Positions 3,132 to 52,559 of a stretch of DNA of 64,000 nucleotides are shown here, one piece after another. The stretch lies in the NCBI GenBank assembly GCA_038209965.1, contig JBBQXF010000003.1, positions 25,420-89,419 on the forward strand, written 5' to 3'. Both the position numbers and the translations under genes were made by a program. Origin of the DNA: Cytophagales bacterium. Its GTDB lineage: Bacteria; Bacteroidota; Bacteroidia; Cytophagales; Thermoflexibacteraceae. Position 1 is the first letter of the stretch; every line of letters begins with the position of its first letter. The notes under the pieces were generated by a model, which saw nothing but the letters and a program-made list of their open reading frames with translations, was not told the DNA's origin and ran no database searches.

Positions 3132-3866
3132 ATGCAAAAAATAATTGCAATCGTCAACCACAAAGGGGGCGTGGGCAAATCGACCACCACGCATAACCTG
3201 GGCAGGGCATTGGCCATTATGGGCAGAAAAGTGCTCATCATCGACAATGACCCGCAGGCCAACTTGACCACCTCCACGGGTACGACTGCTCCTGCCAAGT
3301 CGATCTACTCCGCCTTGTGTGAAGATGAGCCGTTGCCCATCCATGCAGTGGCCCAAAATCTCGATCTGGTACCTTCCGAACTAGAATACACCAAGGCCGA
3401 GTATAAGTTGCAGTCCGATATCAAGGGGTATTTCAAAATGCGCAAGGCATTGGAGAAATTGACGGGCTATGATTTTGTGCTCATCGACTGCCCGCCGAGC
3501 TTGGGCATCTTAACGCTCAACGCGCTGATTGCGGCCAATTCGGTGCTAGTGGTGGTGCAAAGCTCTTTCCTGTCGGCCAAGGGACTGCAAACCATCCTCG
3601 ATGTGGTCAAAGATATCAAGGACGACCTCAACCCGCGCCTCGAGGTGGAGGGCTTTCTGCTCACCCAAGCCAACAACACGGTCATCCGGCGCGACATTGC
3701 CGAGTGGGTGCGCGAAAACTACCAAGGCAAGGTGTTCCAAACGTTGATCCGTCAGAATGTGGCCCTGGAAGAAGCTACCGCTAGGGGACAAGATATTTTT
3801 CAATACAATGCCCATTCCAACGGGGCCGAAGATTACCGCAATTTGGCCAAGGAAGTGGCCGGTTGA
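3132..3866 (+). CDS. parA: ParA/Soj/MinD-family partition ATPase.
   Basis: Deviant Walker A KGGVGKST; IIDNDPQANLT; Walker B-like VLIDCPPSLG. Overall ParA family signature, 244 aa. Confidence 0.85.
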   Translation: MQKIIAIVNHKGGVGKSTTTHNLGRALAIMGRKVLIIDNDPQANLTTSTGTTAPAKSIYSALCEDEPLPIHAVAQNLDLVPSELEYTKAEYKLQSDIKGYFKMRKALEKLTGYDFVLIDCPPSLGILTLNALIAANSVLVVVQSSFLSAKGLQTILDVVKDIKDDLNPRLEVEGFLLTQANNTVIRRDIAEWVRENYQGKVFQTLIRQNVALEEATARGQDIFQYNAHSNGAEDYRNLAKEVAG

Positions 3867-13212: not shown

Positions 13213-14071
13213 TTTGCTACAATTTAGTGAATAGAATCCATTTTGGTGCTACCAATTAGTGAATAAACTGGGGCTAGATGCTACTAAAATGTGTATTTTT
13301 TGGGTGAGGTGCTACTTGTTTGTGCATTTAATTTTTCATTCACTTGCCATCCAAGCGTTAGCCAGCATAATTTTTTGGATCACTTTTTTTGAACGTTTTT
13401 CGCTTTGGGTGGCCATTTGGCGCACATAAAAATCTTTTTTGCTCCCAAGATAGCCATTTTCATCCTGCTACTCCTCTCCAACCTTGAAAACGATCTGGCA
13501 ATCTGTGCCAGTTTGGCCAGAAATCAGGATTTTGCCCGCTAGGTCGACTATTCCCCCACCGCAGCTAATGGAAGGGGTTTCATTTATCGATCTGCTACAA
13601 AATAGTGCATTGCTGGGTGGGCCATTCAACGCGGGTCTGCTACAATATTGTGCAGGTTTGGCCACCGGATTAGCTGCTACAAAATAGTGCATTGGGGCGG
13701 ACAGAACCGCCAATCGCGGCAAAGTGCTACAAAATAGTGCATTTTGGGCAACTTTAAACCAGGCTAAATCCCGTGTTAGACTGGGTTAAGTGACTTTTTT
13801 TTGATAATTATCAATAATTTTTTCAACCTGTTGGGTTAACTGCTACAACATTGTGCATTATAGTTCAGTGCAATAGTTCTCATGGGATTTAGAGGGCAAG
13901 GATCGGCTTGCCTTGCAACCCAGCTTCGGTTCCACACTTTTAGCTGCTACAAAAACGTGCATTATTTTTTTGCACAATGAAAACCTTATTTTTGGGCTTG
14001 ATAGCTGCTACAAATTTGTGCATTAAAAAATTATCAAAATACGTGCTACAATTCTTTGGAATTGTAGCACG
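13213..14071. repeat. Iteron array: about 12 direct copies of a ~20-bp motif (consensus GCTGCTACAAAATAGTGCATT) plus one palindromic pair. Putative oriV.
   Basis: Copies at ~13213, 13247, 13278, 13306, 13591, 13637, 13673, 13722, 13838, 13934, 14003, and the inverted pair GTGCTACAATTCTTTGGAATTGTAGCAC at ~14042. Spacing is irregular and the copies are imperfect. The array sits directly upstream of the rep gene. Confidence 0.8.
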
Positions 14072-14159
14072 TTCGTTTTAACTTTCGCCTTCAGTTCAAC
14101 CCACCGGTCAGGTTTAGTTCAAGCACGGCCCGTTTTTGAACGCTAAAACACCAAAGCCC

Positions 14160-15503
14160 ATGATGATGGACATAACCAAGAGCGAGATCGTCAAAGTTGA
14201 AAAAACTGACAAAAAGCGCCATCCAATCCATTACACCGTTTTTCATCCCAATGTGCTCATCGGGGTCAATACCGAGTTGAAACTGGCCGAGCAGCGGCTT
14301 TACATGGAGATCTTGAACTTTAACCACCAAGCCGAGCCAGACCGGCTCGACTATGAGATCCCCTACGAGTTCATCACCCACAGCACCGACCCGAAGGTGA
14401 TCCAAAAGAAAGCCCACCAAGAGTTTACCCGCATTGCCGAGGTACTCCAAAAACGGGTCTTCCGCTTGGACAAAGAGTTTATGCAGACGCACTTCAACGA
14501 AAAGTACGCCGTCACCATCAACCCTTTCCCGGTCATCAAATACAAGGAAAAACATTTTCAAGTCCGGCTGAACGAGTACCTCAAGGCCGTTTTGGTGAAA
14601 CTCGAGATGGGTTTCACCAAGGGGGACATCGAGTTGCTGCGCGCATTCCGCAGCGAATATTCCTACCTGATGTACTGGCTCATCCGCCGCGAGCAATGGA
14701 AGCACAAAGCCGGAGTTTTGGATTTTGCCCTCGATGAGCTAAAAAAAGAACTGGGCTGCACGGATCAGTACGAAGGCCGGTTCAATAATTTCAAGGCCCG
14801 GGTGTTGGATGTGGTCCACGAGGAGTTTCAGGGCACTTGGGTCGAGTTTGACTACGAGATCCTGCGCGGGGGCAAGGGCGGCAAGGCCATTCAGAAAATC
14901 TTGTTCAAGTTTGGCACCGATTTCCAACAAGAACAGAAACTGGCCCTGGCCGAAAACCGCTATGCTTGGGAAGGCGAGCTGCTCCAACTCGGTATTGGGG
15001 AGAAGGAAGTGCTCCGTTTCCGCGACTATGTGGCCAACCAGCAACCGCTCAAGGACGGTCAAGTCTGGGACAGCTTTTATGTGCACACGTGCATGGCCAT
15101 AGCCCGGGAAAACTATCGGAACAAACGGCTCAACGTGCAAGCCAAAAAAATAGCCAATACGGCCAATTACCTTTATTCGGCCTTGGTGCAAGGATGGTGG
15201 GTGAAAGAGGTGGAGTTTCGCCGCCAACTGCCCAGCTCGCCCGCCCGGCCCCCGGCCAGCCTGTTTGCCGAATTGCCGGCCAAAGTAAAGCTGTCCCCCG
15301 AATCTGTCCAGTTGACCGTTGATCCGCCCGTTAAGAGCAGTGTTGGACTGGCCCCGCCACGGACGAAGTTCCGGTTGCCTTACGTCGATTTTATGGAAAC
15401 CTACCGTGCTTATTTGTCCATCAGCAAAGAGCCGATGAGCGAGCCAGATTTTGCGGCCAAACTGGGCTACAAAATCTCCGGTGACTACGTGGAGAAGGTT
15501 TGA
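14160..15503 (+). CDS. rep: Plasmid-type replication initiator, Rep_3 (RepB/RepA iteron-binding) family.
   Basis: …KRHPIHYTVFHPNVLIGVNTELKLAEQRLYMEILNF… matches the Rep_3 'l.l.EqRL….il' core. Located immediately downstream of the iteron array. The ORF track starts at TTG 14136; ATG 14160 is likelier. Confidence 0.75.
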   Translation: MMMDITKSEIVKVEKTDKKRHPIHYTVFHPNVLIGVNTELKLAEQRLYMEILNFNHQAEPDRLDYEIPYEFITHSTDPKVIQKKAHQEFTRIAEVLQKRVFRLDKEFMQTHFNEKYAVTINPFPVIKYKEKHFQVRLNEYLKAVLVKLEMGFTKGDIELLRAFRSEYSYLMYWLIRREQWKHKAGVLDFALDELKKELGCTDQYEGRFNNFKARVLDVVHEEFQGTWVEFDYEILRGGKGGKAIQKILFKFGTDFQQEQKLALAENRYAWEGELLQLGIGEKEVLRFRDYVANQQPLKDGQVWDSFYVHTCMAIARENYRNKRLNVQAKKIANTANYLYSALVQGWWVKEVEFRRQLPSSPARPPASLFAELPAKVKLSPESVQLTVDPPVKSSVGLAPPRTKFRLPYVDFMETYRAYLSISKEPMSEPDFAAKLGYKISGDYVEKV

Positions 15504-15546
15504 CAAAAGTGGACACATTGTCCACTTTTTTTTGATCCGATCAAGC
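15497..15546 (+). terminator. Intrinsic terminator hairpin that is copy 1 of a ~50-bp direct repeat.
   Basis: TGACAAAAGTGGACA-cat-TGTCCACTTTTTTTTGATCCGATCAAGCCAC, a 12-bp stem plus T8. It is nearly identical to 17163-17212. Confidence 0.65.
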
Positions 15547-15833
15547 CACTTTCCCCCAGCGGAATATGAAGTGCGGTGTCCCAAAATTGCTTTTTCAACT
15601 GACTTCTTATGGCTTAGCCGTTTAGAGAAAGGAAAAAATCAAAACTTCTCGTACTTTTTTCAATCCCATTTTTCCGGAAAAGTAGCTTTTGGGGTGAAAT
15701 ATTGCTTCTACACGCTGATTTACCTTGGTTTGGTGGACTGTTGCTCACAAACATTCGCCAGTTAGTTTTTGTATAATAGTGACATTATTTTGCGACAGTA
15801 TCTGGAAGTTCATTCACCAAATCCGCTACTTAT

Positions 15834-17063
15834 ATGTCTGTAATAACTACCGAGAAAGAAACACAGATCAGTTTTGACTATGCGCTGGCGCAGCAGATCG
15901 TCCAACTCAATATTCAGGATGAAGCTTTGGACGGGCGCATGATTACCGTCAATGGCTGCCCCATGATAAACTTTGGCAACTGCTCTTACTTGGGGCTGGA
16001 ACTGCACCCGGCAATTAAAGCCGGAGTTATGTTGATGACGCAGCGATACGGATCCTTGTACGCCAGTTCCCGTTCGTATGTGGGCTTGGGCATTTTTGAA
16101 GAATTAGAAGACTTGATGGAACAAATTTTTGGTGGGCCAACATTGATGGCCACCTGTACGACCATGGGCCACTTGGGGGTCATCCCGGTTTTGGTGGGGC
16201 CCCATGATGTGGTGATCATGGATCAGCAGGTACATGCCTCAGTCCAAATGGCGGTTTCTTGCCTAAAAGGGAGTAATCCGGCTCAACAAGTGGAAAAAAT
16301 CAAGCACAACAACTTGGCTATGCTTGAGAACCGGATACAAAAGCTAAGCGTGGGGAACAACAAAATCTGGTACATGGTTGATGGGGTCTATTCCATGTTT
16401 GGTGATGTAGCCCCGATCCCTGAAATCCTGGAACTGATGGATCGGTATGACAACCTGTATTTGTATTGTGACGATGCGCACGGAATGTCATGGACGGGAC
16501 GCCACGGGGCGGGTTTTTTCCGCAGTCGCTGTGCCTATCACCCTCGGGTAGTATTGTCGACCTCGCTTGGCAAAGGGTTTGGGGCGGCCGGAGGCACATT
16601 TACTTTCCCAAATCAAGAAATGAAACACAAAGTCCGCTCGCTGGGTGGCACTTTCATTTTTGCAGCCCCGTTGTCCCCTCCCTTGTTGGGAGCTTGCCTA
16701 GCTTCGGCCAGAATCCATCTGAGTGACGAGCTTGCTCCCTTGCAAGCGGCCCTGCGAGTCCGGATTGATCATTTTGTGAAAGTGGCCCAGGAACTTAAAT
16801 TGCCCTTGGCCGGATCGGCCGAAACCCCCGTGCAGTTTGTAGTGATTGGCAAAGCCGAAAATGCCGTTGACGTGGTCAAACGCTTGCACCAGCGCGGTTT
16901 TTATGTAAACATGAGTGCTTATCCGATTGTGCCCCAAGGGAAGGGTGGGTTGCGCATTACACTGACCAACCACCTGAGCTTAAATGATTTGAGTAATTTG
17001 GCGAAGGCTGTCCGCGAAGAATTGGATGAGCAGGTAAAGCTTGTCCAGTCGGCAACTCGCTAG
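15834..17063 (+). CDS. Alpha-oxoamine synthase family PLP enzyme (8-amino-7-oxononanoate synthase / serine palmitoyltransferase-like).
   Basis: 409 aa. GSLYASSRSYVG, DDAHGMSWTGRHG, STSLGKGFGAAGG (PLP-lysine region) are typical of the BioF/SPT/KBL family. Confidence 0.8.
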   Translation: MSVITTEKETQISFDYALAQQIVQLNIQDEALDGRMITVNGCPMINFGNCSYLGLELHPAIKAGVMLMTQRYGSLYASSRSYVGLGIFEELEDLMEQIFGGPTLMATCTTMGHLGVIPVLVGPHDVVIMDQQVHASVQMAVSCLKGSNPAQQVEKIKHNNLAMLENRIQKLSVGNNKIWYMVDGVYSMFGDVAPIPEILELMDRYDNLYLYCDDAHGMSWTGRHGAGFFRSRCAYHPRVVLSTSLGKGFGAAGGTFTFPNQEMKHKVRSLGGTFIFAAPLSPPLLGACLASARIHLSDELAPLQAALRVRIDHFVKVAQELKLPLAGSAETPVQFVVIGKAENAVDVVKRLHQRGFYVNMSAYPIVPQGKGGLRITLTNHLSLNDLSNLAKAVREELDEQVKLVQSATR

Positions 17064-17162
17064 GTTTCCCGTGAAGTCAAAACCGAACTATTACTGGCCT
17101 AATGTTAGTCATTTTTTGGGCCAAATTGATTTTTTCCTTACTCCGGTCATTGGTTGACTGGT

Positions 17163-17212
17163 GTACGCCTGACAAAAGTGGACACATTGTCCACTTTTTT
17201 TTGTTCCGATCA
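17163..17212 (+). terminator. Copy 2 of the 50-bp terminator-hairpin repeat.
   Basis: TGACAAAAGTGGACACATTGTCCACTTTTTTTTGTTCCGATCAAGCCAC, 1 mismatch to copy 1. Confidence 0.65.
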
Positions 17213-18757
17213 AGCCACAAAATTCAATACTTCGTGCCAACTGAGCCACTCACTGCGGCGGTCCGGGGTATCATTGAGGCCGCCACCGCCCTTGCGGGAG
17301 TAGAAAGCGGTTCCCCATTTGGTACTACTGATGTCCACTTGGGCAAATATATGGTGGGGCAGGTTAAAAAAGCTGTCACTGATCGTTTGATCGCTGGGGC
17401 TGAGGCGCAGGTTGCCCTCGGGCTGGGTGCGGAACCAACCCACGGTATCCAAGTGGGTTTGTTGCAGGGCATTGTCCAAGGCCAACCAAGCGGGCAAACC
17501 AAAAATCACCTTGCGCGGGTTTTGCTCGGCAATCGGGGCAGTGGTCACATAATCGATCGATACCAAATACCGCTGGGCCGAAGGGACATAAAAAGATCGG
17601 CCCAACAGAAACCCCCCGGATTTGGGGACAAAGCCAGCATGGGAGGCGGAAGTTTGTTGGATGAGGTCGCGGATCTGCCGGGCTGCGTTTTGGTGGATGT
17701 AGAGTGAAAGCACCGAACTGTCGGCCCAAGCCCGGTCGAGCCGCACTTGGGAATATTTGGATTGTTCGCGCCCTTCCGTGATTTCGTAAAAATGGTTGGC
17801 AATGGGATCTTGGGAGGGCTGCAAAATGAAGGTCCGGCTCCGATCGGCGGCCACTGGGGCGGCCTTGTCGGTATTGACCACCTTGATTTCTTGTTGGGGA
17901 TTGGCCTTGGGTTTTTTTGCAGGCTCCGATTTTTGGGCTGGCTTTTTGGGCTCATCGTCCTCGGTTGGCCGTCTTTTGCCACTGCGGAGCCACGCGATCA
18001 AGGCCCCGATGGCCGCAAAAAGCCCAGCTACGCCCCCCGTAATCCAGCCCCACAGCGGAATATTGGGGAGTCCGGGGATGCTCGGGGTGCTCGGGGTTGC
18101 ATTGTTCAATGCCCGGTTGCCCTCGTCTTTTACCTCTTCCTTCACCCGGTTTTCCACCTCGGTCTGGAATTCGCTCTTGCCTTGGTCTGTACCTTTGGTG
18201 TTGTCTTGGACGGGTTCAGTTTTCACCACGTTTTTGTCCGCTTGGCTGCTACTGCTGTTGTTGTCGTTGGCCACCGATCCGGTAGCGGCCAGCAGGGTGT
18301 AATTGATCGCCACCGTTTTGAGCGGGCGACGGGGCGGGGCTTCGCCCAGTTCTTCGGTTGCAAAACCAATCTTGAGCGTTCCTTTGGTAGTGGCCGTGGC
18401 CACGATGTTGTAGGTGATCTCGCAAATAAATTTGTCGCACAGGCAGGAAACGAACGTGAGCCCCGGGGCTTTGGCGGGCACCCATTTGTCGTAGGTCTTC
18501 AGTTCCAGCAGTTCGCGCTGGTCGGCGGCGGCTTCCAACGTGGCATGGATCAGCAATTTGCCATTGGGGCCAATCCGGGCCTCAAAAGCCCCGCCTTGGA
18601 TGCCGGCCAATTGACTGCGATCCCGCCCGTGGGCCAAGATCAGGGGGGCCGTCACTTTTTGTCGGTTAAAGGTGTAGGTAAGGTCTTGGGCGGCTGACTG
18701 GGCCAGTGCCCCAACTGAAAAAATCAAAGTGAAAAATATCTTTTGCCAAGCATTCAT
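17210..18757 (-). CDS. Single-pass membrane protein: signal peptide, ~190-aa extracytoplasmic domain, TM helix, Lys/Pro-rich linker, and a C-terminal JAB/MPN domain with all catalytic residues substituted (MPN-minus).
   Basis: MNAWQKIFFTLIFSVGALAQSAAQ signal; TM WGWITGGVAGLFAAIGALIAWL. The C-terminal …GWFRTQPEGNLRLSPSD aligns to the JAMM motif HxHx7SxxD with H->R and H->Q. The upstream E-motif is replaced (PKSGGFLLG). Confidence 0.55.
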   Translation of the reverse strand: MNAWQKIFFTLIFSVGALAQSAAQDLTYTFNRQKVTAPLILAHGRDRSQLAGIQGGAFEARIGPNGKLLIHATLEAAADQRELLELKTYDKWVPAKAPGLTFVSCLCDKFICEITYNIVATATTKGTLKIGFATEELGEAPPRRPLKTVAINYTLLAATGSVANDNNSSSSQADKNVVKTEPVQDNTKGTDQGKSEFQTEVENRVKEEVKDEGNRALNNATPSTPSIPGLPNIPLWGWITGGVAGLFAAIGALIAWLRSGKRRPTEDDEPKKPAQKSEPAKKPKANPQQEIKVVNTDKAAPVAADRSRTFILQPSQDPIANHFYEITEGREQSKYSQVRLDRAWADSSVLSLYIHQNAARQIRDLIQQTSASHAGFVPKSGGFLLGRSFYVPSAQRYLVSIDYVTTAPIAEQNPRKVIFGLPAWLALDNALQQTHLDTVGWFRTQPEGNLRLSPSDQTISDSFFNLPHHIFAQVDISSTKWGTAFYSRKGGGGLNDTPDRRSEWLSWHEVLNFVA

Positions 18758-18775
18758 GGTATTGTTGGATCTGGG

Positions 18776-19075
18776 TTAACCACCCGTAAGGATGGGGACG
18801 AGTAAGAGAGTGTAGCCTTCGCGCATTCCGTTTTGGAACAAGGTTTCGGTCAGGCCGATTTCGCGCCCAGCTTTTTTGTTGACCAATTGGAAGGTGAACC
18901 GGTTGCCATCGCTGTCGGTAGTCGGGAAACCAAAATTGGCAGCATTTTCGAGCAGTTTTTGCAACAGTTGGCTGCCAGTGGCACTCAACGGCACATCGAT
19001 GTGGAGTTCGGTGCCGTTGGGCAATATCCGCAATATCAAATCTACTTTGGCCGATGGATTACTGCCTGCGCTCAT
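18776..19075 (-). CDS. Beta-grasp ubiquitin-like / MoaD-ThiS-like small protein ending in Gly-Gly.
   Basis: 99 aa. KVDLILRILPNGTELHIDVPLSATGSQLLQKLL…FTFQLVNKKAGREIGLTETLFQNGMREGYTLLLVPILTGG*. The C-terminus resembles ubiquitin (LHLVLRLRGG) and MoaD (PPVTGG) tails. 18 bp upstream of the MPN gene. Confidence 0.55.
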   Translation of the reverse strand: MSAGSNPSAKVDLILRILPNGTELHIDVPLSATGSQLLQKLLENAANFGFPTTDSDGNRFTFQLVNKKAGREIGLTETLFQNGMREGYTLLLVPILTGG

Positions 19076-19137
19076 TTTTGATTGGTTTTGGTGCTAAAAT
19101 ATAGTAAAGTGGGCGATTTGTCAAAAATGGGGGCGAT

Positions 19138-19749
19138 TTAGCCCAACAAATCTCGATCGAGCAACACATACGTGAGCGTGCCCGTCTCGCTCACGTCCAT
19201 GGTAAAAATTTCCTTTCGGTACAATTCTTCCAATTTGGCCTTGGCCTCGTCCACTGGCACTTCAGCCTTGACACACAGGGCCGCCGGGGTGAGTTTGCCG
19301 CCCGATCGGATGGCCAGTTGGATCACCTCGGCATCGGTCAGTTTGCGGGCACTGCCGGGGATCTGGCTGGTGCTTGCGCGCCTACCGACGGAACTTTGGG
19401 GGTAATTCTTACGGATTTTGCCCTGAAGCACATACCTGGACTGCCAAGTGGCCCAGTCGTAACTTTGTTGGATCAGCCCGTTGGCCTGCATCTGCCACAG
19501 CCGGCTTTGGGCTTCGCCAGCCGTGAGCCCGTGCTGGATCAGCAGCGGCAAAGTAACTTCCCCGCCATTTTCCATGGCCAGTTCCACCACGGTGGCATCG
19601 GGCATTTTTTCGGCCAATGCCCGGACACGGCCTTGGTACGAAGTCACGGACCAGTAAAGGCCTCCGCCCAAAAGGCCAGTAACAATAATTCCAAGGAAAA
19701 TAAGCAGGAGAGCAAGCATGATAGGGCAATAATAAGCCAAATTGATCAA
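19138..19749 (-). CDS. N-terminally membrane-anchored protein with two tandem ~45-aa winged-HTH-like repeats. First gene of the Ubl/MPN operon.
   Basis: TM IMLALLLIFLGIIVTGLLGGGLYW. Repeats PDATVVELAMENGGEVTLPLLIQHGLTAGEAQSRLWQMQANGLIQ / TDAEVIQLAIRSGGKLTPAALCVKAEVPVDEAKAKLEELYRKEIF. Confidence 0.5.
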   Translation of the reverse strand: MINLAYYCPIMLALLLIFLGIIVTGLLGGGLYWSVTSYQGRVRALAEKMPDATVVELAMENGGEVTLPLLIQHGLTAGEAQSRLWQMQANGLIQQSYDWATWQSRYVLQGKIRKNYPQSSVGRRASTSQIPGSARKLTDAEVIQLAIRSGGKLTPAALCVKAEVPVDEAKAKLEELYRKEIFTMDVSETGTLTYVLLDRDLLG

Positions 19750-20191
19750 AAATGATCACGGGCTAAGCGGGTTCAAGTTCTTTCAACTTGGCCTGGAGCG
19801 AAACACGAGCACCTTTCCCTACCGGCGCTCATGGGCTTTTACCGGAACCCTGTCCTTTGACTACAGCCGGACGTTTAGCCGCCAGACGAATAACCACCAT
19901 CTGGACTTTGGCCTCTGTTTTTATCAGGTGAACGGCAAAACGTTGGTCGGCTCACGGGGTTCCTTCTCGGTGAGTAGCATAATCGTGGCTTTTAGAGAAG
20001 AGGTGTCTTGGGTTGATCAAAACTACCAACTACTGGCCCCCCGGATCGGCTATCGCTACCAGCGGCCGCAGGGCGGGTTCACTTGGCGGGCGGGGATCCA
20101 CCCGTTTTTCTACAGTCCTAGATCAAGAGCAGCCGGTGGGGGCGCGGTTTTTTTCCCGACCCCGCACGTGGGCTTGGGCTGGAACTTCTGA
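19742..20191 (+). pseudogene. Possible C-terminal remnant of an outer-membrane beta-barrel protein.
   Basis: ORF ends …FFPTPHVGLGWNF*, a classic OMP beta-signal (GxGWxF-COOH), with alternating aromatic/hydrophobic strands upstream. There is no signal peptide or full N-terminus. It sits in an otherwise gene-free ~700-bp stretch. Confidence 0.3.
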
Positions 20192-23403: not shown

Positions 23404-24168
23404 TTACAAATTTTCGCCTTGCAAGATAGCAAGAAGATCAGTTTTTTTCCGGCGAGAAACCTCGAGTGATTTTCCGTCGGCCATAACAACCATTCCCCCA
23501 TCATTTTTGATATATTTGCGCACATGGTTGAGGTTTACTATGTGAGATTTATGTATCCTGAAAAAAAGATTGCGCGGCAGCATTTCTTCGATCTGGGAAA
23601 GCGTTTTGGAAACACAGATAGACTGTTTGTTGCTCGAGTGCACAAAGGTATAGTTGGATTCGGCAATACAGTACAATAGGTCGGAAACCTGCAGCACATC
23701 AAAACCTTCCAAAGTGGGTAAGCACACCTTGACATCCCTTGGGCTGGTCAGGGATAAGTTATGAAACAATGTCTGATACATTTTTGCAGCATGTTGGACG
23801 CTAAACACGTGACGTACTTGCTCCAAAGCGCTTAAAAATAGATTTTCTTCTATGGGTTTGAGCACATACGACACCGCCGAATATTGAAATGCCTGTAAAG
23901 CATAATCATGGTGGGCAGTCACGAAAATAATCAGAAAATCAATGCGTTGCAAATTTTTGAGCATCTCAAAGGCATTGGAAGGAGGCAAGGAAATATCCAG
24001 AAATACCAAGTCTGGTTTGAATTGCTCAATCATCTGTTGGGCACTTTGGGCAGTATCAGCTTCTCCTATCACAACAATGTCCGGGCTGTATTTGCCCAGT
24101 AGATGTCGCAAAATAGACCTGTTTTCTTTCTCATCATCCACAATCAAACTTCTTATAGTGGGGGTCAT
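23404..24168 (-). CDS. LytTR-family two-component response regulator.
   Basis: Receiver domain LIVDDE…DLVFLDISLP. C-terminal LytTR DNA-binding domain (…FFRIHKSHIVNLNHV…). Confidence 0.85.
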   Translation of the reverse strand: MTPTIRSLIVDDEKENRSILRHLLGKYSPDIVVIGEADTAQSAQQMIEQFKPDLVFLDISLPPSNAFEMLKNLQRIDFLIIFVTAHHDYALQAFQYSAVSYVLKPIEENLFLSALEQVRHVFSVQHAAKMYQTLFHNLSLTSPRDVKVCLPTLEGFDVLQVSDLLYCIAESNYTFVHSSNKQSICVSKTLSQIEEMLPRNLFFRIHKSHIVNLNHVRKYIKNDGGMVVMADGKSLEVSRRKKTDLLAILQGENL

Positions 24169-24201
24169 ATAGGTTTTTGGGAATAAAGTAAAATTAGTGC
24201 A

Positions 24202-26259
24202 TCAAATAGGTATTTCTATGTGGATGCTGGTTCCTGTGTGGCGGTTACTACTTACGGAAAAGCTCGCTTTTTCTGTTTTTCCACTATTCCATAAGTCAAA
24301 ATAATTTTTGATAATCGCCATGCCTTTGGATTGGTGCGCCGAAGGATTACTGTTTTCTTGGAAACCGTTCCCATTGTCAATGATTTCGCAATGTAAAAAA
24401 AACTCAGATTCTATAAATCTAATGAGTAGCTTTTTCTCTCTTTTAATGGGAACCAAGCCGTGAATAATGGCGTTTTCCACAAATGGCTGGATAAGCATCG
24501 GGGGGACTTCGAGCAGTTCGGGGGCTTCTTCGCCTTCGTAGTCAATACTAAACTGAAAATCTTCACCAAAACGCAGTCTCTCGAGCTCAATGTACATACG
24601 CAGATACGCAATGTTTTGTTGGAGGCTAACGCGCAAGTGAGCTGAATTTTCGAGGGTTGTGCGCATCAGGCTGGCAAATTTACTGAGATAAATGGAGGCT
24701 TGCTCATTTTTCTCCGCAAGTACCAATGACTTGATGGTATTGAGGCAATTGAACAAGAAGTGCGGATTAAGCCGTGTTTGAAGAGCATACAATTGCATTT
24801 CTTGCAGCTGTTGCTGGAATTGTATCCGGGTTTTCTCTTCTTTTGTTGCTTGCAGTACGTAGGTTTGGGCGACAATTTCGGTGGTTTTGGCCGCTACTTC
24901 CTGTTCCAATCGCAGGTTCAGGCTGGCCATAAACGTTTTCTTTTCTTCCAGTTGCGCAATGATGACTTTTTGAAAGCGATTTTTTTCTTCGCTATCCAAT
25001 AAAAGTTTTCTTCCCAAAGCCAAAGCAAAAAATAAAATTTCTATGAGCGTTCCGATTTGCATAAAATTATTTGGAAAAAACGGTTCACTGAAAGAACTGA
25101 AATTTCCAAAAAGTATACCCAAGATATTACCTAGATAGAAACTAAATGACCCCCAAAAGAGGTATTTGGAAAATGGAATATTGCGAAGTGTCCACAATTG
25201 CCAGAACAAGAACAGATAAAATACAAATAGGCCATAAAAGAACACACTGTTGATGATGATAAACCCGAACAACACCTGAACATCAAATCCGAACAGTAAA
25301 GCCCCCATATTAGCTGACCAAAGCAAAGCGCACACGATGTTGATAAAATATAAAATTTTGTACAGCAAGGGCTTGTTGTTCTTTATCGTCAAAAACTGCA
25401 TCAGGAAAAGATGATACCCGATCAGATAGACGTAGGCAACAATTTCTTTGGCATAAATCCAGCGCTCGGGGAACTCCCAAATATACCAAGCATTGAAATG
25501 TAAGGGAAAGACATCTAATACCCCAAATAAAAGGACTCCGATCAGATACCATGCATAATACCCAAAATCAGGCAACTTATTTTGAATATAAATGGCCAGA
25601 AAAAAGCATATCATTATCAGCAGTGCCCCTACATAAAGGTTACTAATAAAACCGCTATTTCTTTTGCTAATCTCTTGCTTTTGTAATAAATTCATGTAGC
25701 CTGTCCCATTAAAAGCCGTAATATGAGTATCGGCTTTACGGTTGGGTAAGTCATAGAAATGCAAAGTAACGTTTTGCTGCTGGTTGGCGGGTATAGTATA
25801 ACTGAGGGTTTGCAGATTTTGCGAAGATTGACGGTAGCGTACGGGTACCAAAAAACCATTATAAGCCACTTGGTTATTGGTTTCCGATACTATCAAACCA
25901 TTGATCCCCCTTCTACTGCGTACCATATCTATCGAACTTTGTTTGAATAAATCTTGGCTGCCTACGTAGATAAAAAAAGTAGAGGCTTGTGGTTGGTCAT
26001 TGTACAAACAAAACGACAGACTGGTTTTGTACACCCAGAAATCCAGGAATCCAGTCTTGGGGGTGGTAGCTGGTTTCGGCACGGGCGAAGGTTGATTGCC
26101 GATGTTGATGGGACTTTTTTCCGCCAATATTGATGCTCGCAGGGTGTCTTGGGCCCGTAAAGCGCCCACCGAGGATAGCGATAATACAATAAAAATGTAT
26201 AAAAATAGATTTTTTGAAATATTTGAAACAATACTGATCATAAATTCTTGAAAAACCAT
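24202..26259 (-). CDS. 7TMR-DISM sensor histidine kinase of the LytS/His_kinase (PF06580) type.
   Basis: N-terminal extracellular domain, 7 TM helices, coiled coil, LNPHFLFNCLNTIKSLV H-box, HATPase_c end. Adjacent to the LytTR regulator. Confidence 0.85.
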   Translation of the reverse strand: MVFQEFMISIVSNISKNLFLYIFIVLSLSSVGALRAQDTLRASILAEKSPINIGNQPSPVPKPATTPKTGFLDFWVYKTSLSFCLYNDQPQASTFFIYVGSQDLFKQSSIDMVRSRRGINGLIVSETNNQVAYNGFLVPVRYRQSSQNLQTLSYTIPANQQQNVTLHFYDLPNRKADTHITAFNGTGYMNLLQKQEISKRNSGFISNLYVGALLIMICFFLAIYIQNKLPDFGYYAWYLIGVLLFGVLDVFPLHFNAWYIWEFPERWIYAKEIVAYVYLIGYHLFLMQFLTIKNNKPLLYKILYFINIVCALLWSANMGALLFGFDVQVLFGFIIINSVFFYGLFVFYLFLFWQLWTLRNIPFSKYLFWGSFSFYLGNILGILFGNFSSFSEPFFPNNFMQIGTLIEILFFALALGRKLLLDSEEKNRFQKVIIAQLEEKKTFMASLNLRLEQEVAAKTTEIVAQTYVLQATKEEKTRIQFQQQLQEMQLYALQTRLNPHFLFNCLNTIKSLVLAEKNEQASIYLSKFASLMRTTLENSAHLRVSLQQNIAYLRMYIELERLRFGEDFQFSIDYEGEEAPELLEVPPMLIQPFVENAIIHGLVPIKREKKLLIRFIESEFFLHCEIIDNGNGFQENSNPSAHQSKGMAIIKNYFDLWNSGKTEKASFSVSSNRHTGTSIHIEIPI

Positions 26260-26386
26260 TCAATAAATAGATAATACCATTCCCCCTTTAAACCCTACCG
26301 TTCACTCACTTGTTCAGTTTTTCTTGTTTAGTTCGCATACCTTTGAAAGGTCAAATATTGGGTTTAACGCTAAAATATACGTAACG

Positions 26387-27784
26387 ATGAAAAAACGCAC
26401 TTATTTTATACTTATCGGTGGTTGTTTGTTTGCTCATTTGTCTTTTGGTCAGATCATAGACCCTAAGCAAACCGCCAAACAGAAAAGTACCGACCGTGTC
26501 AATTCCCGCATCGATCAAGGCATAGACAAGGGCTTGGACAAAGTAGAAGGTCTGTTTAAGAAGAAAGAAAAGAAGCCTAAAAATGGTAAGAAAGACGAAA
26601 ATTCGGATGAAAACACCAATGAAGACAACTCCAACGGGAACAACTCCAACGGGAACAACTCCAACGGTAACAATTCCAACGGTAACAATTCTAACGGCAA
26701 AAACAGCGGAAACGGTAACTCGTCTGCGGGTAACCAAACACCAAGTTTTAAAACCTATTCCAAATTTGATTTTGTACCCGGCGAAAAAGTCATTGCTTTT
26801 GATGATTTTGCCACCACAAGCGTTGGAGATTTTCCTTTGGGCTGGAACACCAACTCCACGGCAGAAATTGTAACCATTGACGGCGACTCCAAAAAGTGGC
26901 TTTTTATGTCCAGAGATGGATTCTTTCAGCCTGAATATGTAAAAGATATGCCCGAAAATTTTACGCTGGAGTTTGATGTTCTCACTCGCTATGCATCTAA
27001 TAACATTTTAAAATATTCCTTTTATTTATCTGCTGTTGAGAATCCTAGAAAAGATTTATCCAATGCATACATCAAAAATGGAATTTACTTTGGCTGGCGA
27101 CCTTGTGCGGGCGAAAGTGGCTATATTGTATATGCAAACAGTGAAGAAGTTAGTCAAAATGCGGGTTTGAGTATCGCACAATTCGAATCTCAAACTTGTA
27201 GTGTACCTATTGTGGCGAAAGTGTCTATCTGGCGACAAAAAACACGCTTGCGTATGTATGTCAATGAAACCAAAGTATTGGATATTCCGCAAGCCTTTGA
27301 TGCAAAACTCAAATACAACGCCTTTAAATTTGGCAGTGCTCAGATGAACTTCTCTAACGGCAGACAAAACGATGATGAGTTTATGGTATCTAACATTCGC
27401 TATGCCGTGGGTGCTCCAGATATGCGTTCCAAACTTATCACCGATGGCAAACTCGTTACCAGAGGGATTACTTTTGATGTGGGTTCGGATAAAATAAAGC
27501 CCGAAAGTTTCGGGGTACTCAAAGAAATAGCTCAGGTGCTTTCCGAAAATCCTACGGTAAAAGTAAAAATCATTGGCCATACCGACTCTGACGGCAACGC
27601 CGCCAGCAACTTAGAACTTTCTAAAAAACGAGCTGCTGCCGTTAGCAAAGCCCTTACTTCGGATTTTAAAATTGATGCCTTACGCATGCAAACCGATGGC
27701 AAGGGGGCAGCCGAACCCTCCGAACCCAACGCCACGCCACAGGGCAAAGCGAATAACCGGCGGGTGGAGTTTGTTAAATTGTAA
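26387..27784 (+). CDS. OmpA-family protein with an NSNGN low-complexity repeat linker and a C-terminal OmpA/peptidoglycan-binding domain.
   Basis: Signal MKKRTYFILIGGCLFAHLSFGQ. C-terminal …TFDVGSDKIKPESF…GHTDSDGNAASNLELSKKRA…NRRVEF (OmpA_C). Confidence 0.8.
   Translation: MKKRTYFILIGGCLFAHLSFGQIIDPKQTAKQKSTDRVNSRIDQGIDKGLDKVEGLFKKKEKKPKNGKKDENSDENTNEDNSNGNNSNGNNSNGNNSNGNNSNGKNSGNGNSSAGNQTPSFKTYSKFDFVPGEKVIAFDDFATTSVGDFPLGWNTNSTAEIVTIDGDSKKWLFMSRDGFFQPEYVKDMPENFTLEFDVLTRYASNNILKYSFYLSAVENPRKDLSNAYIKNGIYFGWRPCAGESGYIVYANSEEVSQNAGLSIAQFESQTCSVPIVAKVSIWRQKTRLRMYVNETKVLDIPQAFDAKLKYNAFKFGSAQMNFSNGRQNDDEFMVSNIRYAVGAPDMRSKLITDGKLVTRGITFDVGSDKIKPESFGVLKEIAQVLSENPTVKVKIIGHTDSDGNAASNLELSKKRAAAVSKALTSDFKIDALRMQTDGKGAAEPSEPNATPQGKANNRRVEFVKL
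26623..26700. repeat. 15-bp tandem repeat (AACAACTCCAACGGG, about 5 units) encoding the NSNGN repeats.
   Basis: Direct reading of 26620-26700. Confidence 0.8.
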
Positions 27785-27880
27785 ACGACTACCCAAGAAA
27801 TCTACAAGGCTTTCAAAAGCCTTGTAGATTTTTAAAATAAAACCTAAAACTTTCAATTTAATCACAAAGTATAAATTTCT

Positions 27881-28660
27881 ATGATAAGGACAATCGGTAT
27901 TTTAATATGTATGTGCCTGCTTTCTGCTTGTGATAAAAAAGGGCAAGAGAAAGACAAAAATGATTTGAATAAAATAATCTCCGAGACAATCCCCGATGGA
28001 GGAGAGGCAAATACAACCATTGGTAAATGCCTCATGGAAAAGGATATGAGAGAAATACTTACGCCAGATTTGGTACAAGAGTTTTTGGGTGTACCAGTTA
28101 GTAAAGCCAAAGAAGAGGAGATTGAGAAAACATCATTTGTCAATAAGCTCGAATATACAGATGAAGATAATCCTAGAGGCACAAAAAAAGTTGAATTAAT
28201 GAAAGGCTTAATTCAGGATTTTCCCGTTGAAAATGTAATAGGTATTAGTTATATCAGAACTACCGACTTACCCACTTTCAAAAACTTTTACCGTAATGCT
28301 ACCGATGAAGATTTGGCGAAAATGGAAAAAGCAATGAACAGCCCTGAGACCAAGAAAAAACAGCAAGAAATGCTTGACAAACAGAACCTATCACCCGAAA
28401 TGCGTAAAGTAGTCGAAGAATCTCTCAATGCTGGCAAAGACAAAGACATAGCTCGTGGACTTTCTACAGGAGCGAAAGAAAGGTTTGAAGAAGCTTCGGG
28501 TGTAGGCGAATACTGTATCTGGAACAAGCAAGAACAAATGCTGCTTGTCTACACCTCTAATGTTCAAATAGGGGTAAGCGTAAATACGTCGGATGATAAA
28601 GCTTCTAATAAAGCAAAGGCTACCGAACTTGCCAAAAAGATATTAGCTAAATGCCAGTAA
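27881..28660 (+). CDS. Hypothetical lipoprotein (low-GC island), paralog of the next gene.
   Basis: Signal plus lipobox LLSAC. 259 aa, Lys/Glu-rich. C-terminal …LAKKILAKCQ resembles …AKEVLKKCK of the downstream gene. Confidence 0.6.
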   Translation: MIRTIGILICMCLLSACDKKGQEKDKNDLNKIISETIPDGGEANTTIGKCLMEKDMREILTPDLVQEFLGVPVSKAKEEEIEKTSFVNKLEYTDEDNPRGTKKVELMKGLIQDFPVENVIGISYIRTTDLPTFKNFYRNATDEDLAKMEKAMNSPETKKKQQEMLDKQNLSPEMRKVVEESLNAGKDKDIARGLSTGAKERFEEASGVGEYCIWNKQEQMLLVYTSNVQIGVSVNTSDDKASNKAKATELAKKILAKCQ

Positions 28661-28719
28661 ATCCTAATCTTAGAAATATTAAAATCTACTTGTTAAGAAT
28701 GTTCCAAACGTAAAATCTT

Positions 28720-29505
28720 ATGAAAAAAATAACATTATTGCTTTTAGGCATTGCGTTTGCTTTATCAGCTTGCAACAAAACTGACCAAAAAAAAGCAGGT
28801 ATCAGCGAAAGTGATGCTAAGGATGTTGAAAAAATCTTGAGCGAGAACGGTGGTGAAGGCTGCTTTATTCCTTATCAAGCCAAAGTCTGCGAACTTATAG
28901 ACAAGGAAACTATCGCCCAAATACTTGGTGTTGATGCGGGTAAAATGACAGTAATGGATGTGTTTAAAACTTTGCACGAGAGTGGTAAAAATAAAGATAA
29001 GCCCTACAAAGGATCTCAATCTGCCATTTGTGATTATGAATGGGAAGATGAGACTAAAAAAATAAAGGAATATATACCAGGATTAGGCAAAGAAGTTGAC
29101 CTGCCTATGTATGCAAAGGTTCAAATAACTGGTTTGGCACTTCAAAAAAACGTAGCAAGTTTTAAGCAAACTCACCGTAGTGTGAGTAAAGACGAAATGG
29201 AGGAGGCTGGTAAAAACGCAAGCGAGCGAATAGATAAAAGTGGTAAACACACCAAACAAGAAGTAAACACCGCCACAGATATGCTCAACGCATTGTCAGA
29301 AGCGCAGGTGGTAACCTATCTGAATGATTTGGGTGAAGTCGCCGCCAGCACTCGCTCCAAACTTAGTGGTGAGCAAGCCGAACTCGCTGTATATTATCGT
29401 GGCAATCAGTTTCAGGTATATGTAAATATGGGAGGCAAAACACACGCCCAAAACTTAGAACTTAGTGTGCAAATTGCCAAAGAAGTACTTAAAAAATGCA
29501 AGTAA
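28720..29505 (+). CDS. Hypothetical lipoprotein (low-GC island).
   Basis: Signal plus lipobox ALSAC. 261 aa. Shared C-terminal motif with 27881..28660. Confidence 0.6.
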   Translation: MKKITLLLLGIAFALSACNKTDQKKAGISESDAKDVEKILSENGGEGCFIPYQAKVCELIDKETIAQILGVDAGKMTVMDVFKTLHESGKNKDKPYKGSQSAICDYEWEDETKKIKEYIPGLGKEVDLPMYAKVQITGLALQKNVASFKQTHRSVSKDEMEEAGKNASERIDKSGKHTKQEVNTATDMLNALSEAQVVTYLNDLGEVAASTRSKLSGEQAELAVYYRGNQFQVYVNMGGKTHAQNLELSVQIAKEVLKKCK

Positions 29506-29530
29506 ACCACAATTTTAACCCAAAATAAAC

Positions 29531-30229
29531 ATGAAAAAGACAAGTTTAATTATTGTATTTCTGTTGGTGTTGTCTGTTGGCTATGCCCAAACCAACGACT
29601 GTAACGGCTATTTTGCCTACAAACAAGGTACTAAGTTTGAGCTGACTTGTTACGACAAAAAAGACAAAGTCACAACTCTGCTCAAGTATGAGGTTAAGAA
29701 AAATGTATCTTCAGCAAGCAAGACAGAGTTTTTCTTTTACAACGAAACCATGGACGACAAAGGCAAACTGCTTGTCAAAGGCGACTACAGCGTAGAATGT
29801 AAGGATGGGCAAGTGTTTGCCGACGTGCGCAACATCAGTTCGTTTGCAGCCCCCAAAACGGCGGATGTGGAAATGAGTTTTACCGGTGATAAAATTACCT
29901 ACCCCCACAACCTAAGTCAGGGGCAAAAGCTTGCCGATGCCAATATGCAAGTCAAGGGGGGGATGGCAAATGTGGGTTTGAACCTTATCAATATAAACAT
30001 GTCTTTTACCAATCGCAAGGTAGAGGGCTTTATGCCGATAACTACACCGGCGGGTACGTTTGAGTGTGTCAAAATATCTTATGACAGTGACGTAAAAAGT
30101 GGTTTGTTCAAATTTAACGGCAAGACTACCGAATACCTTGCCAAAGGCATTGGGATAGTAAAATCAGAATCTTTTGACAAAAAAGGCGTAAAATCGTCCT
30201 CCATCATATTGACCAAATTAGAAAAATAA
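29531..30229 (+). CDS. Hypothetical secreted protein.
   Basis: Signal MKKTSLIIVFLLVLSVGYAQ. 232 aa. Low GC. Confidence 0.55.
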   Translation: MKKTSLIIVFLLVLSVGYAQTNDCNGYFAYKQGTKFELTCYDKKDKVTTLLKYEVKKNVSSASKTEFFFYNETMDDKGKLLVKGDYSVECKDGQVFADVRNISSFAAPKTADVEMSFTGDKITYPHNLSQGQKLADANMQVKGGMANVGLNLININMSFTNRKVEGFMPITTPAGTFECVKISYDSDVKSGLFKFNGKTTEYLAKGIGIVKSESFDKKGVKSSSIILTKLEK

Positions 30230-31236
30230 TGAAAAAGATCATCATCATTTTATGTTTGTGTGGGATTGGGTTTGGGCAAATAGCTGCCCAAACCTATACT
30301 TTCAACGCCAAGGCAACTTTTAAAATTCAAACAGATGAAGGGTCGTTTAGCTCTTACTTTTACCTCAATACCAAAAATGGTAATGCAGGACATGATGCTC
30401 AAGCCTTTCAAATGATGACTAAGGAAAATGTTGACGGGTACATTTTTTCGCTGGTTGAATATGGAAAAAAAATGTCGCAATACATGAATGTCGAAGGCAG
30501 AAAATATGTGGTAGAGCAGCCTCTATCCAGAGAAAATTATACTGCAGACATGTTTTGGAAAGAATTCAAAAAAACCGGAAAACGCCAAACTTTCGGGAAA
30601 TATGCGGCCCAAGAATATACAGGGACAAGCGAAGACAGAAAAATAGCCATCTGGCTAGGCGAAAAAACCTACAACTTGGATGGTAAGCTACAAGGCGATA
30701 TTGTAGGGCATTATGGTGTTGGTTATTTGTTCAAACCTTCTGAAAATGCCTATTACCTGATTGTTCACTTCAAAGATGAAGATGCCCAAGTAACACTTTT
30801 GGATATAATACCTTTCTCCAAATCTGTTGCGTTGAATGGCTATGAGAAAATGAAAGTGCCAGTAATGCCAGATACCATGCTCCAAGGCAACGGCAATCCC
30901 AATCAAAACGAAGAGCCACCCAACAATAAAGGGCAGGGATATGGAATGGAAAATTTGAAATGCTCAAGCACGTACGGAGCGGCCATTTCAGCTTTGGAGC
31001 AGTCCCTATCAAGTTACAAAAATTTGCTCAATAATCCTCAGGTTGGTGCAGAACAGAAGGCGGAATTTCGTAAAATGCTTACTTGCCTTGAAGGCAAACT
31101 GCCTTTGATGAAGCTTGCCAAGGAGGAAGCTCTGCGAGCCGAGCAGCGCTATTCCAATAATCAGGAAAAATTGATGGAGGAATGCCAAAAGATTGAAGAG
31201 AAATTAGAAAAAAATACGGCTCATCTATGTCCCTAG
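30229..31236 (+). CDS. Hypothetical secreted protein with a C-terminal coiled coil.
   Basis: Signal MKKIIIILCLCGIGFGQIAAQ. 335 aa. The start overlaps the previous stop (ATGA). Confidence 0.55.
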   Translation: MKKIIIILCLCGIGFGQIAAQTYTFNAKATFKIQTDEGSFSSYFYLNTKNGNAGHDAQAFQMMTKENVDGYIFSLVEYGKKMSQYMNVEGRKYVVEQPLSRENYTADMFWKEFKKTGKRQTFGKYAAQEYTGTSEDRKIAIWLGEKTYNLDGKLQGDIVGHYGVGYLFKPSENAYYLIVHFKDEDAQVTLLDIIPFSKSVALNGYEKMKVPVMPDTMLQGNGNPNQNEEPPNNKGQGYGMENLKCSSTYGAAISALEQSLSSYKNLLNNPQVGAEQKAEFRKMLTCLEGKLPLMKLAKEEALRAEQRYSNNQEKLMEECQKIEEKLEKNTAHLCP

Positions 31237-31505
31237 AGAAATAAACCTAGTTTTTGGTTGGGCAGGGTGAATGGGGCAATGCGCTGGATGTATGATAACA
31301 GTATTTTTGCTGATTGAAAATAAACGAGTTACTTGTTTCTACAATTCGTCGGCTTGGTGTAGGATCATTTATTGGGTGTTGTCATTTCTCGCCGAATAAG
31401 TAGAAAATAAACCTCTCAGTGGCTTCTCGACGACAAAATAAATTTGACCAATTGATTACCAAAGCTTAAAATATTAGTTTTTTTGCACCCAAGGCCACCT
31501 TCATT

Positions 31506-49176: not shown

Positions 49177-49284
49177 AGTTCGGGTAAGTAATGGTGATGG
49201 GCTATTTTATCAGACCATATAGAACTCAAAAAAGTGAGCTTACAATTAATGTAAATCGACAAAAATATATACCTTCGCTGACAA

Positions 49285-50667: not shown

Positions 50668-50669
50668 GT

Positions 50670-52543: not shown

Positions 52544-52559
52544 ACAAACTTTTATGCTA

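Follow-up and report, generated by a model that had tools for sequence, protein, structure and literature searches.

A degenerate ubiquitin-like protein-JAB module of Cytophagales with a membrane-spanning pseudo-deubiquitinase

Introduction

Protein conjugation by bacterial ubiquitin-like protein (Ubl) pathways, such as CBASS with its Cap2 and Cap3, Bil and Bub, has been demonstrated only recently, and to our knowledge all of the characterised bacterial Ubl pathways are soluble and enzymatically complete. Here we describe a locus of another kind from a 64,000-nucleotide stretch of the genome of a Cytophagales bacterium (GenBank assembly GCA_038209965.1, contig JBBQXF010000003.1, positions 25,420 to 89,419; hereafter the window), in which a Ubl ending in Gly-Gly is encoded next to a membrane protein with a JAB/MPN domain that no longer has its catalytic residues, together with a tandem-repeat protein and without an E1 or E2 gene. 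The co-occurrence of a Ubl with a JAB protein is in itself known from the CysO-Mec+ and QbsE-QbsD pairs (Iyer et al. 2006, PMC1779556), and the literature on related systems covers the classes of Iyer et al. 2006, Bil, Bub and the vWA-ternary Ubl systems. As in the window, a small GG-ended beta-grasp protein is found beside a JAB protein in CysO-Mec+ and QbsE-QbsD; however, these pairs involve another Ubl family, an active and soluble JAB, and an obligatory E1-like adenylyltransferase with sulfur enzymes, none of which is present in the window. The window locus is a degenerate Ubl-JAB module and a clean case of a bacterial pseudo-deubiquitinase kept together with a Ubl.

Results

A degenerate JAB/MPN domain encoded next to a Ubl

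The locus is a cassette of three co-directional genes on the minus strand with intergenic gaps of 62 bp and 18 bp; the open reading frame (ORF) list and the raw sequence agree in this with an initial annotation of the window. The ORF of gene 1 reaches up to a TTG at 19749 (19138..19749, 203 amino acid residues, aa), and its database homologues begin at the equivalent of Met11, which is the ATG at 19719. The genes, and the parts of the gene 3 product, are as follows.

19138..19719, minus strand: gene 1, membrane-anchored tandem-repeat protein, 193 aa from the ATG at 19719
18776..19075, minus strand: gene 2, YukD-type ubiquitin-like beta-grasp protein, 99 aa, ending LLLVPILTGG before the TAA stop (ORF and homology)
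17210..18757, minus strand: gene 3, type-I membrane protein with a pseudo-JAB/MPN domain, 515 aa (ORF and homology)
18278..18688, minus strand: extracytoplasmic immunoglobulin (Ig)-like beta-sandwich domain, aa 24-160, with conserved Cys105, Cys107 and Cys112 (confident structure prediction and fold search)
17987..18052, minus strand: transmembrane (TM) helix, aa 236-257, followed by RSGKRR (Kyte-Doolittle 1.98)
17213..17767, minus strand: pseudo-JAB/MPN domain, aa 331-515, the most constrained part of the 515-aa protein (profile homology)
17621..17623, minus strand: position of the catalytic Glu, occupied by Lys379 (alignment)
17390..17440, minus strand: degenerate JAMM motif GWFRTQPEGNLRLSPSD, aa 440-456 (alignment to active relatives)

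The C-terminal domain of the 515-aa protein is assigned to the JAB/MPN superfamily (PF01398 / PF14464) by transitive homology. The direct Pfam JAB match of the window protein is below threshold (12.5 bits against a cut-off of 22.5, E 0.14), and sub-threshold matches are likewise obtained for all four close homologues, with a best E of 0.0013. While word-indexed homology searches returned only 2-6 close relatives for each of the cassette proteins, an exhaustive profile search brought up a wider family of 456 JAB-family clusters (counted at 50% identity) at E<=1e-3, 242 of them at <=1e-10. Nearly all of these match at profile positions ~333-512 and at the extreme C-terminus of proteins of 200-1080 aa, and members of this set score above the Pfam JAB gathering threshold there (27-33.7 bits), the similarity of the window domain to such proteins reaching an E of about 1e-30. 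In a profile search of the PDB the top match was the MPN protein 2kcq (E 0.067), with an archaeal Rpn11-like protein among the five matches, and one homologue carries the JGI annotation 'proteasome lid subunit RPN8/RPN11'. An AlphaFold2 (AF2) model of the 515-aa protein, computed from a four-sequence alignment, has a predicted local distance difference test score (pLDDT) of about 30 for aa 280-515 and is unreliable there; the order of its secondary-structure elements in this low-confidence part is compatible with an MPN domain.

Column-for-column alignment with the active relatives shows that PEIGGFLLG is changed to PKSGGFLLG and GWFHTHPGHGLFLSKPD to GWFRTQPEGNLRLSPSD in the window protein. 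The first His of the JAMM motif is replaced by Arg443 and the second by Gln445, and Ser453 and Asp456 are kept. In an hmmalign census 145 of the 151 aligned relatives have E-H-H-S-D at the catalytic positions, whereas the window protein and its 71% homologue P0002 have K-R-Q-S-D, and two homologues of ~40% identity that occur without an adjacent Ubl (solo homologues) have K-H-Q-T-D. The signature of an active JAMM metalloprotease (MPN+) is thus missing from the window protein, and the motif region is invariant within the clade that carries the three-gene cassette (the trio clade). Arg443 and Arg450 are confined to the Ubl-linked subclade, the Ubl-less solo homologues having His at both positions. 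In a midpoint-rooted neighbour-joining tree the four pseudo-JABs are monophyletic and nested among active members, the placement of their long branch being uncertain. A second degenerate member of the JAB family, apparently independent, is the 253-aa protein P0158 from a Logan assembly, with S-Q-R-S-D at the catalytic positions.

In the 515-aa protein a signal-like N-terminus is followed by the Ig-like ectodomain, a stalk that is acidic and rich in Ser, Asn, Asp and Lys, the TM segment, a linker rich in Lys, Pro and Glu, and the C-terminal domain of ~185 aa. The beta sandwich of the ectodomain is a confident prediction for aa 24-156. The fold search with the ectodomain gave generic Ig-like matches only, and the AF2 model has a helix at 236-258 that covers the TM segment. 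The initial annotation had described a protein with a signal peptide, an ectodomain, a TM segment and a Lys-rich linker, ending in a JAB/MPN domain whose JAMM motif is exactly preserved in spacing with the Glu and both His replaced; the hydrophobicity profile and the model bear out the topology, and the transitive homology and the alignment bear out the nature of the domain and the substitutions.

The 99-aa protein encoded 18 bp away was likewise correctly recognised there as a beta-grasp Ubl with a Gly-Gly tail, and by profile homology it is a member of the YukD family (PF08817). Its own Pfam matches are sub-threshold (UBL_UBAC1, E 0.002; YukD, E 0.005), and its profile matches the Ubl domain of UBFD1 in the PDB (1v86, E 0.053). 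A hidden Markov model (HMM) built from six orthologues finds homologues in about 30 loci of the wider family (E 2.5e-17 to 1e-4), one of which passes the Pfam YukD cut-off with 30.2 against 27 bits, while Pfam contains no ThiS or MoaD match to the protein. The exposed C-terminal Gly typical of conjugatable Ubls, such as ubiquitin, Bil and SAMP, is present. A misplaced start or stop as the source of the Gly-Gly is ruled out, since the GG-stop is kept in six out of six orthologues (...LTGG-stop) and the terminal Gly is invariant in 16/16 aligned family members, some of which have cleavable extensions.

The product of gene 1 consists of an N-terminal hydrophobic TM segment, positive residues next to it and two homologous repeats of ~65 aa, which are predicted to be cytoplasmic because the positive residues come after the TM segment. 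The duplication is evident from a pairwise search (33% identity over 43 aa, E 4e-7). The whole protein has nothing significant in Pfam, NCBIfam or the PDB and corresponds to no PADLOC family. A profile of 12 repeat sequences likewise gave nothing significant, its 13 matches including Lrp/AsnC (E 0.11-1.3), HlyU (1.5) and eS25 (0.87), and a single repeat gives a sub-significant match to HTH_45 (E 0.14). The repeats may be winged-helix domains, as these weak matches suggest; of the two winged helix-turn-helix-like repeats proposed for this protein earlier, the TM segment and the internal duplication stand firm, but the winged-helix label has sub-significant matches only.

The three genes are under purifying selection

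The trio is also found in related metagenome and metagenome-assembled genome (MAG) contigs (L004, L005, L007-L013), at least six of them distinct, and the MAGs concerned carry the names Cytophagales and Bernardetiaceae. Compared with the window proteins, their membrane proteins are 69-94%, their Ubls 83-98% and their repeat proteins 67-88% identical, the Ubl being better conserved than either neighbour (67-72%). In at least six distinct contigs the three genes are all intact, with ratios of nonsynonymous to synonymous divergence (dN/dS, by Nei-Gojobori) of 0.04-0.25 at a synonymous divergence near saturation (dS 1-1.9), distributed as follows.

Ubl: dN/dS 0.06-0.09
515-aa protein, whole: dN/dS 0.09-0.13
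C-terminal pseudo-JAB/MPN domain alone: dN/dS 0.04-0.07
Repeat protein: dN/dS 0.17-0.25

The members of the trio are real genes under purifying selection, and the low dN/dS at near-saturated dS shows that the cassette is not a decaying remnant. The initial annotation had made its reading depend on conservation of the trio as a unit, and here the picture is divided: the unit is conserved in a narrow clade (69-94%), whereas the ~40% homologues are solo.

A parent operon with E1, E2 and an active JAB

Metagenome contigs were scanned with the JAB domain alignment, which yielded 64 loci. The loci with an active JAB (L014-L050; for example L024:556-10837, L029:219-11153 and L025:262-11329) have a recurrent fixed order of genes on one strand, as listed here.

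Gene 1: ThiF-type E1 of ~400 aa (Pfam ThiF, E 6e-50)
Gene 2: Ubl, YukD-type, about 90 aa
Gene 3: E2 of 180-290 aa (Pfam UQ_con, 32.6 against 27 bits), similar to eukaryotic E2s, with invariant WHPNI...G...G..C.N
Gene 4: signal-peptide/TM protein of about 500-590 aa, of no known family
Gene 5: TM-JAB protein, type-I membrane protein with a cytoplasmic active JAB
Gene 6, often present: second JAB, soluble, 200 aa
Gene 7: ~800-aa protein with an FHA domain and a weak VWA match
Gene 8, often present: SprB/CHU_C type-IX secretion substrate

Distinct active-JAB loci in which the upstream sequence extends over 4 kb or more number 23; the Ubl is present in 22 of them, the E2 in 22 and the E1 in 18. 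The E1 is the upstream-most gene, and several loci are truncated before it. The Ubl tails in these operons end in ...PKLVAG-COOH, or in AG followed by 2-7 residues (AGITTQLS, AGGRLK, AGYLSK, AGKYCQC; also PGIQ), and such extensions read as the signature of a precursor trimmed by a peptidase. There is good support for reading the operon, which is widespread in Bacteroidota, as a ubiquitin-like conjugation system associated with the membrane. The system is apparently previously undescribed. In PADLOC and NCBIfam its proteins have generic ThiF, E1 and JAB matches only, none above a curated cut-off, and the E1 has a weak generic match to BilD and scores 42 bits with PRTRC_ThiF, for which the cut-off is 145. 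No description of a TM-JAB/VWA-FHA operon of Bacteroidota was found in the searchable literature, where an earlier description is still possible, and no curated library names the operon.

A different type of operon, which is soluble, is present at L054:2838-9433 and L057:2075-9370. It encodes an E2-like protein, a Ubl whose PEITAG end may or may not be extended, an E1, a JAB and several small proteins in which a zinc-ribbon or treble-clef motif of the GKTCPYCQTPIKPG type occurs, and it is reminiscent of the E1/E2/RING-like/JAB systems known from Caldiarchaeum and from some bacteria.

The trio as a reduced offshoot

The trio and the parent operon occur in the same phylum and share a homologous Ubl (E as low as 2.5e-17 by HMM) in which the terminal Gly is invariant, and in both the JAB protein is built from a signal peptide, an ectodomain, a TM segment, a charged linker and a C-terminal JAB (E about 1e-30). 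In contrast to the parent operon, the window has no E1, E2, ~550-aa membrane protein, second JAB or VWA/FHA protein; its JAB reads K-R-Q-S-D in place of E-H-H-S-D, its Ubl tail is GG and not AG or AG with an extension, and it has an additional TM repeat protein, which is present in none of the canonical active-JAB loci. The gene for this protein occupies the former position of the E1, and the Ubl and pseudo-JAB genes are 18 bp apart, whereas the E2 and membrane-protein genes intervene in the parent operon.

The absence of E1 and E2 genes, which the initial annotation had reported for the locus, holds for every ORF of the 64-kb window: an E1 HMM (--max, E<=1) had no match in the window, the trio loci or the solo loci, and over the same range nothing significant was obtained with an E2 HMM (best E in the window 0.59) and no match with HMMs of the ~550-aa membrane protein and the VWA/FHA protein. 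E1 and E2 were likewise not found in pseudo-JAB loci with 17-20 kb stretches of long contigs. The related question of whether an E1 ever co-occurs with such proteins can be answered as well, since E1 is the rule in the wider family (18/23) and the window is the exception. The view of the trio as a stand-alone module did not survive, and the trio appears instead as a degenerate derivative of a family with E1, E2, an active JAB and a Ubl.

Solo pseudo-JAB membrane proteins of ~40% identity are found in Bernardetiaceae (L001, L002, L003 and L006), where neither a Ubl nor a repeat protein could be detected over distances of up to 17 kb. Their genes adjoin a GtrA-like gene and a 7TMR-DISM histidine kinase gene, and in L003 an N6_N4 methylase/RAMA gene. 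A derivation of the trio from the parent operon by reduction and loss of catalysis is well supported by these comparisons. The simplest history would be a stepwise reduction, in which a complete operon first lost catalysis, with K and Q common to all four pseudo-JABs, and then gave rise in one subclade to the three-gene cassette (repeat protein, Ubl, pseudo-JAB) and in another to a lone pseudo-JAB.

Flanking elements and plasmid setting

Two further elements were noted around the cassette genes.

19096..19124, minus strand: promoter-like element TTGACA-17-TATTTT in the 62-bp spacer 5' of the Ubl gene (consensus scan)
17174..17198, no strand assigned: palindromic hairpin with a perfect 11-bp stem, AAAAGTGGACACATTGTCCACTTTT, 12 bp 3' of the gene 3 stop

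The promoter-like element matches the sigma-70 consensus at 10/12 positions and is a pattern only, Bacteroidota promoters being different. The hairpin is a probable bidirectional terminator and sits within a 60-nt direct repeat (15490-15549 and 17159-17218, 90% identity), which also includes the final codons of the 515-aa gene and is found on both sides of a class I/II aminotransferase gene (15834..17063). The relatives have a Rep3 gene that directly converges with the cassette, and the aminotransferase gene of the window looks like an insertion that duplicated the shared terminator. Upstream of the window cassette lies a divergent ORF (19742..20191) resembling an outer-membrane beta-barrel protein, while relatives of ~70% identity have a 109-aa XRE-type HTH_3 gene directly 5' of the cassette on the same strand (L007:9621-9950, L011:2959-3288, L012:460-789, L013:239-568), which is not found in the window.

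The window most likely belongs to a large plasmid of Cytophagales. A Rep3_N/Rep3_C initiator gene (14136..15503) is convergent with the cassette, and six 24-nt iterons of the approximate consensus GCTGCTACAAAATAGTGCATT are located at 13588-14024, directly 5' of it, which is a plasmid-type origin; a ParA-type ATPase gene is present at 3132..3866. The same convergent layout is found in every related contig of sufficient length (L005, L007/8, L011-13), with equivalent iteron arrays in L005 and L007, and homologues of the Rep3 protein are annotated as initiators in plasmids of 90-380 kb from Pontibacter, Hymenobacter, Spirosoma and others. The G+C content drops to 0.34-0.43 at 24001-32000 and 48001-54000 compared with 0.50-0.59 elsewhere in the window, which suggests a mosaic replicon with acquired islands.

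The cassette is not a general feature of Rep3 plasmids: the plasmids in PLSDB contain no homologue of the 515-aa protein, and the cassette is not present in the closest annotated plasmid of the same Rep type, from Pontibacter. A putative seventh iteron copy in the spacer between gene 1 and the Ubl gene (19087-19110, 71% match) was rejected as a chance match, since the iterons of the relatives adjoin Rep3 and none occurs in that spacer. With genes inserted between the two, with PLSDB and the nearest plasmid lacking the cassette and with no iterons in the spacers, the link between the cassette and the replicon is probably historical and not functional.

Discussion

A possible non-covalent reader of the Ubl tail

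The most plausible role of the window cassette, judged from its sequence and setting, appears to be non-covalent Ubl binding or signalling at the membrane, as the initial annotation had proposed. By predicted topology, the Ubl, the pseudo-JAB and the repeat domains are all cytoplasmic, so that they would meet at the cytoplasmic face of the inner membrane. The pseudo-JAB may keep the ancestral groove for the Ubl tail while being unable to cut, and would then hold the free Ubl by its Gly-Gly carboxylate. Candidate contacts of the carboxylate are Lys379, Arg443 and Arg450, which lie in or near the former metal site, the two arginines being proposed because of their restriction to proteins linked to a Ubl and their exchange for His in the solo homologues. 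That the dead MPN domain is the most conserved part of the protein and that its motif region does not vary argue for a retained binding site. The higher conservation of the Ubl than of either neighbour and the closeness of its gene to the pseudo-JAB gene, at 18 bp, also speak for this reading. The ectodomain could link the cytoplasmic complex to an outside cue, the repeat protein may be a third subunit or the output, and the Ubl would function as an adaptor or ligand, as YukD/EsaB in type VII secretion, and not as a conjugated tag. We give this mechanism, in which the pseudo-JAB captures the Ubl tail at the inner membrane, about an even chance of being correct. The fuller picture of a pseudo-deubiquitinase receptor, in which the dead membrane-spanning JAB reads the free Ubl via its Gly-Gly with a winged-helix partner and the parent operon is an undescribed conjugation pathway, is offered tentatively, with somewhat more doubt than confidence.

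Several points weigh against this picture. The AF2 model of the MPN domain is unusable (pLDDT about 30), and Ubl binding is read from sequence; the strict retention of the terminal Gly-Gly over dS > 1.5 is also expected under conjugation; and, as the solo pseudo-JAB homologues demonstrate, an adjacent Ubl is not needed for the membrane protein to work. Furthermore, 64 kb of the genome is seen, so E1 and E2 could be encoded elsewhere, for example in a chromosomal parent operon, which would make the plasmid Ubl an extra paralogue conjugated in trans and the MPN-minus protein a non-catalytic partner or regulator of an active JAB, comparable to Rpn8 with Rpn11 and CSN6 with CSN5. Such conjugation in trans, for which the limited view of the genome leaves room, is in keeping with the invariant terminal Gly and the GG-stop of all orthologues, and JAB-JAB pairing may be native, two JABs often lying side by side in the parent operons. 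We nevertheless consider it unlikely, though a serious contender: encoding in cis is the rule in the active loci (E2 beside the Ubl in 22/23, E1 in 18/23), E1 and E2 are found in none of the pseudo-JAB loci, including those with 17-20 kb stretches, and the tail has changed from AG to GG, with no precursor extension in the trio clade.

The plasmid setting raises the question of whether the cassette tethers the plasmid or regulates its replication at the membrane, with the winged-helix protein binding DNA. The convergence of the cassette with the Rep3 gene in the window, L005, L007/8 and L011-13, the iteron arrays beyond the cassette, the variable upstream flank and the initiation of 90-380 kb Cytophagales plasmids by Rep3 homologues would all be in line with this. 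However, other genes lie between the cassette and rep, namely the aminotransferase gene (window) or genes for cNMP-binding and 119-aa proteins (L011-13), the closest plasmid of the same Rep type and PLSDB as a whole do without the cassette, the cassette spacers of the relatives contain no iteron copies, DNA binding by the repeat protein is unsupported, and the linkage may just mirror shared ancestry within one genus-level clade; a role in plasmid maintenance therefore seems improbable. The loss of E1, E2 and the catalytic residues could also mean that a conjugation operon has decayed and left the cassette as a non-functional remnant, but three intact genes in at least six contigs at dS 1-1.9, with dN/dS of 0.04-0.25 and the dead domain the most conserved, effectively refute pseudogene decay, and we regard this explanation as very improbable. 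Still less credible is a ThiS/MoaD-type sulfur carrier with a JAB processing enzyme, which the GG C-terminus and the known CysO-Mec+ and QbsE-QbsD pairs might suggest: the Ubl matches YukD/UBL models and not ThiS/MoaD, the cassette and the 64-kb window contain no adenylyltransferase or sulfur-transfer enzyme (no ThiF-like ORF), the JAB is inactive and membrane-anchored, and the parent operon has an HPN E2 with a Cys, and the sulfur-carrier reading was rejected.

Comparison with known systems

The locus amounts to an experiment of nature. Strong selection has continued to act on a Ubl and its JAB partner after the loss of E1, E2 and the catalytic site, and their retention despite the loss of the enzymes points to a non-enzymatic, binding-based use of Ubls in bacteria. 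It also leads to a large family of membrane-anchored JABs (456 clusters) in a conserved Bacteroidota operon. This parent system may be the more important lead, with the dead version as a probe for what the JAB domain binds, and if the proposed picture is true, the parent would be a previously undescribed, membrane-embedded E1/E2(HPN)/JAB pathway resembling ubiquitination and widespread in Bacteroidota.

Among the known systems Bil (BilA Ubl, BilB E2, BilC JAB and BilD E1; class 6d of Iyer et al. 2006) similarly has a Gly-ended Ubl beside a JAB, and it ultimately draws on the same E1/E2/JAB/Ubl toolkit as the parent family. While Bil is soluble, enzymatically complete and directed against phages, the window cassette is membrane-anchored, has no E1 or E2 and has a dead JAB, and compared with Bil, Bub and CBASS alike it lacks every enzyme. 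None of the three trio proteins matches the PADLOC 2023 defence models at E<=1, nor is there a match to them in NCBIfam, including its PRTRC models. YukD/EsaB and the Ubl domain of EccD in type VII secretion belong to the same Ubl family, and the non-covalent role in a membrane complex proposed here would be alike; however, YukD has neither a terminal Gly-Gly nor any linkage to JAB, E1 or E2, whereas the window cassette has a GG tail and a JAB-derived partner and no adjacent component of a type VII secretion system.

The MPN-minus proteins of eukaryotes, which include Rpn8, CSN6, Abraxas/ABRO1 and the Jab1/MPN domain of Prp8, have lost the metal ligands, are strongly conserved, and serve as scaffolds or ubiquitin binders. 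In this they would resemble the dead yet conserved JAB of the window, which differs from them in being an independent loss in a bacterial, membrane-anchored protein, with no active MPN+ partner seen in the locus. If the proposed reading of the Ubl tail is correct, the window cassette would represent a non-covalent Ubl signalling device that evolved from a conjugation system, in parallel to the MPN-minus subunits of eukaryotes.

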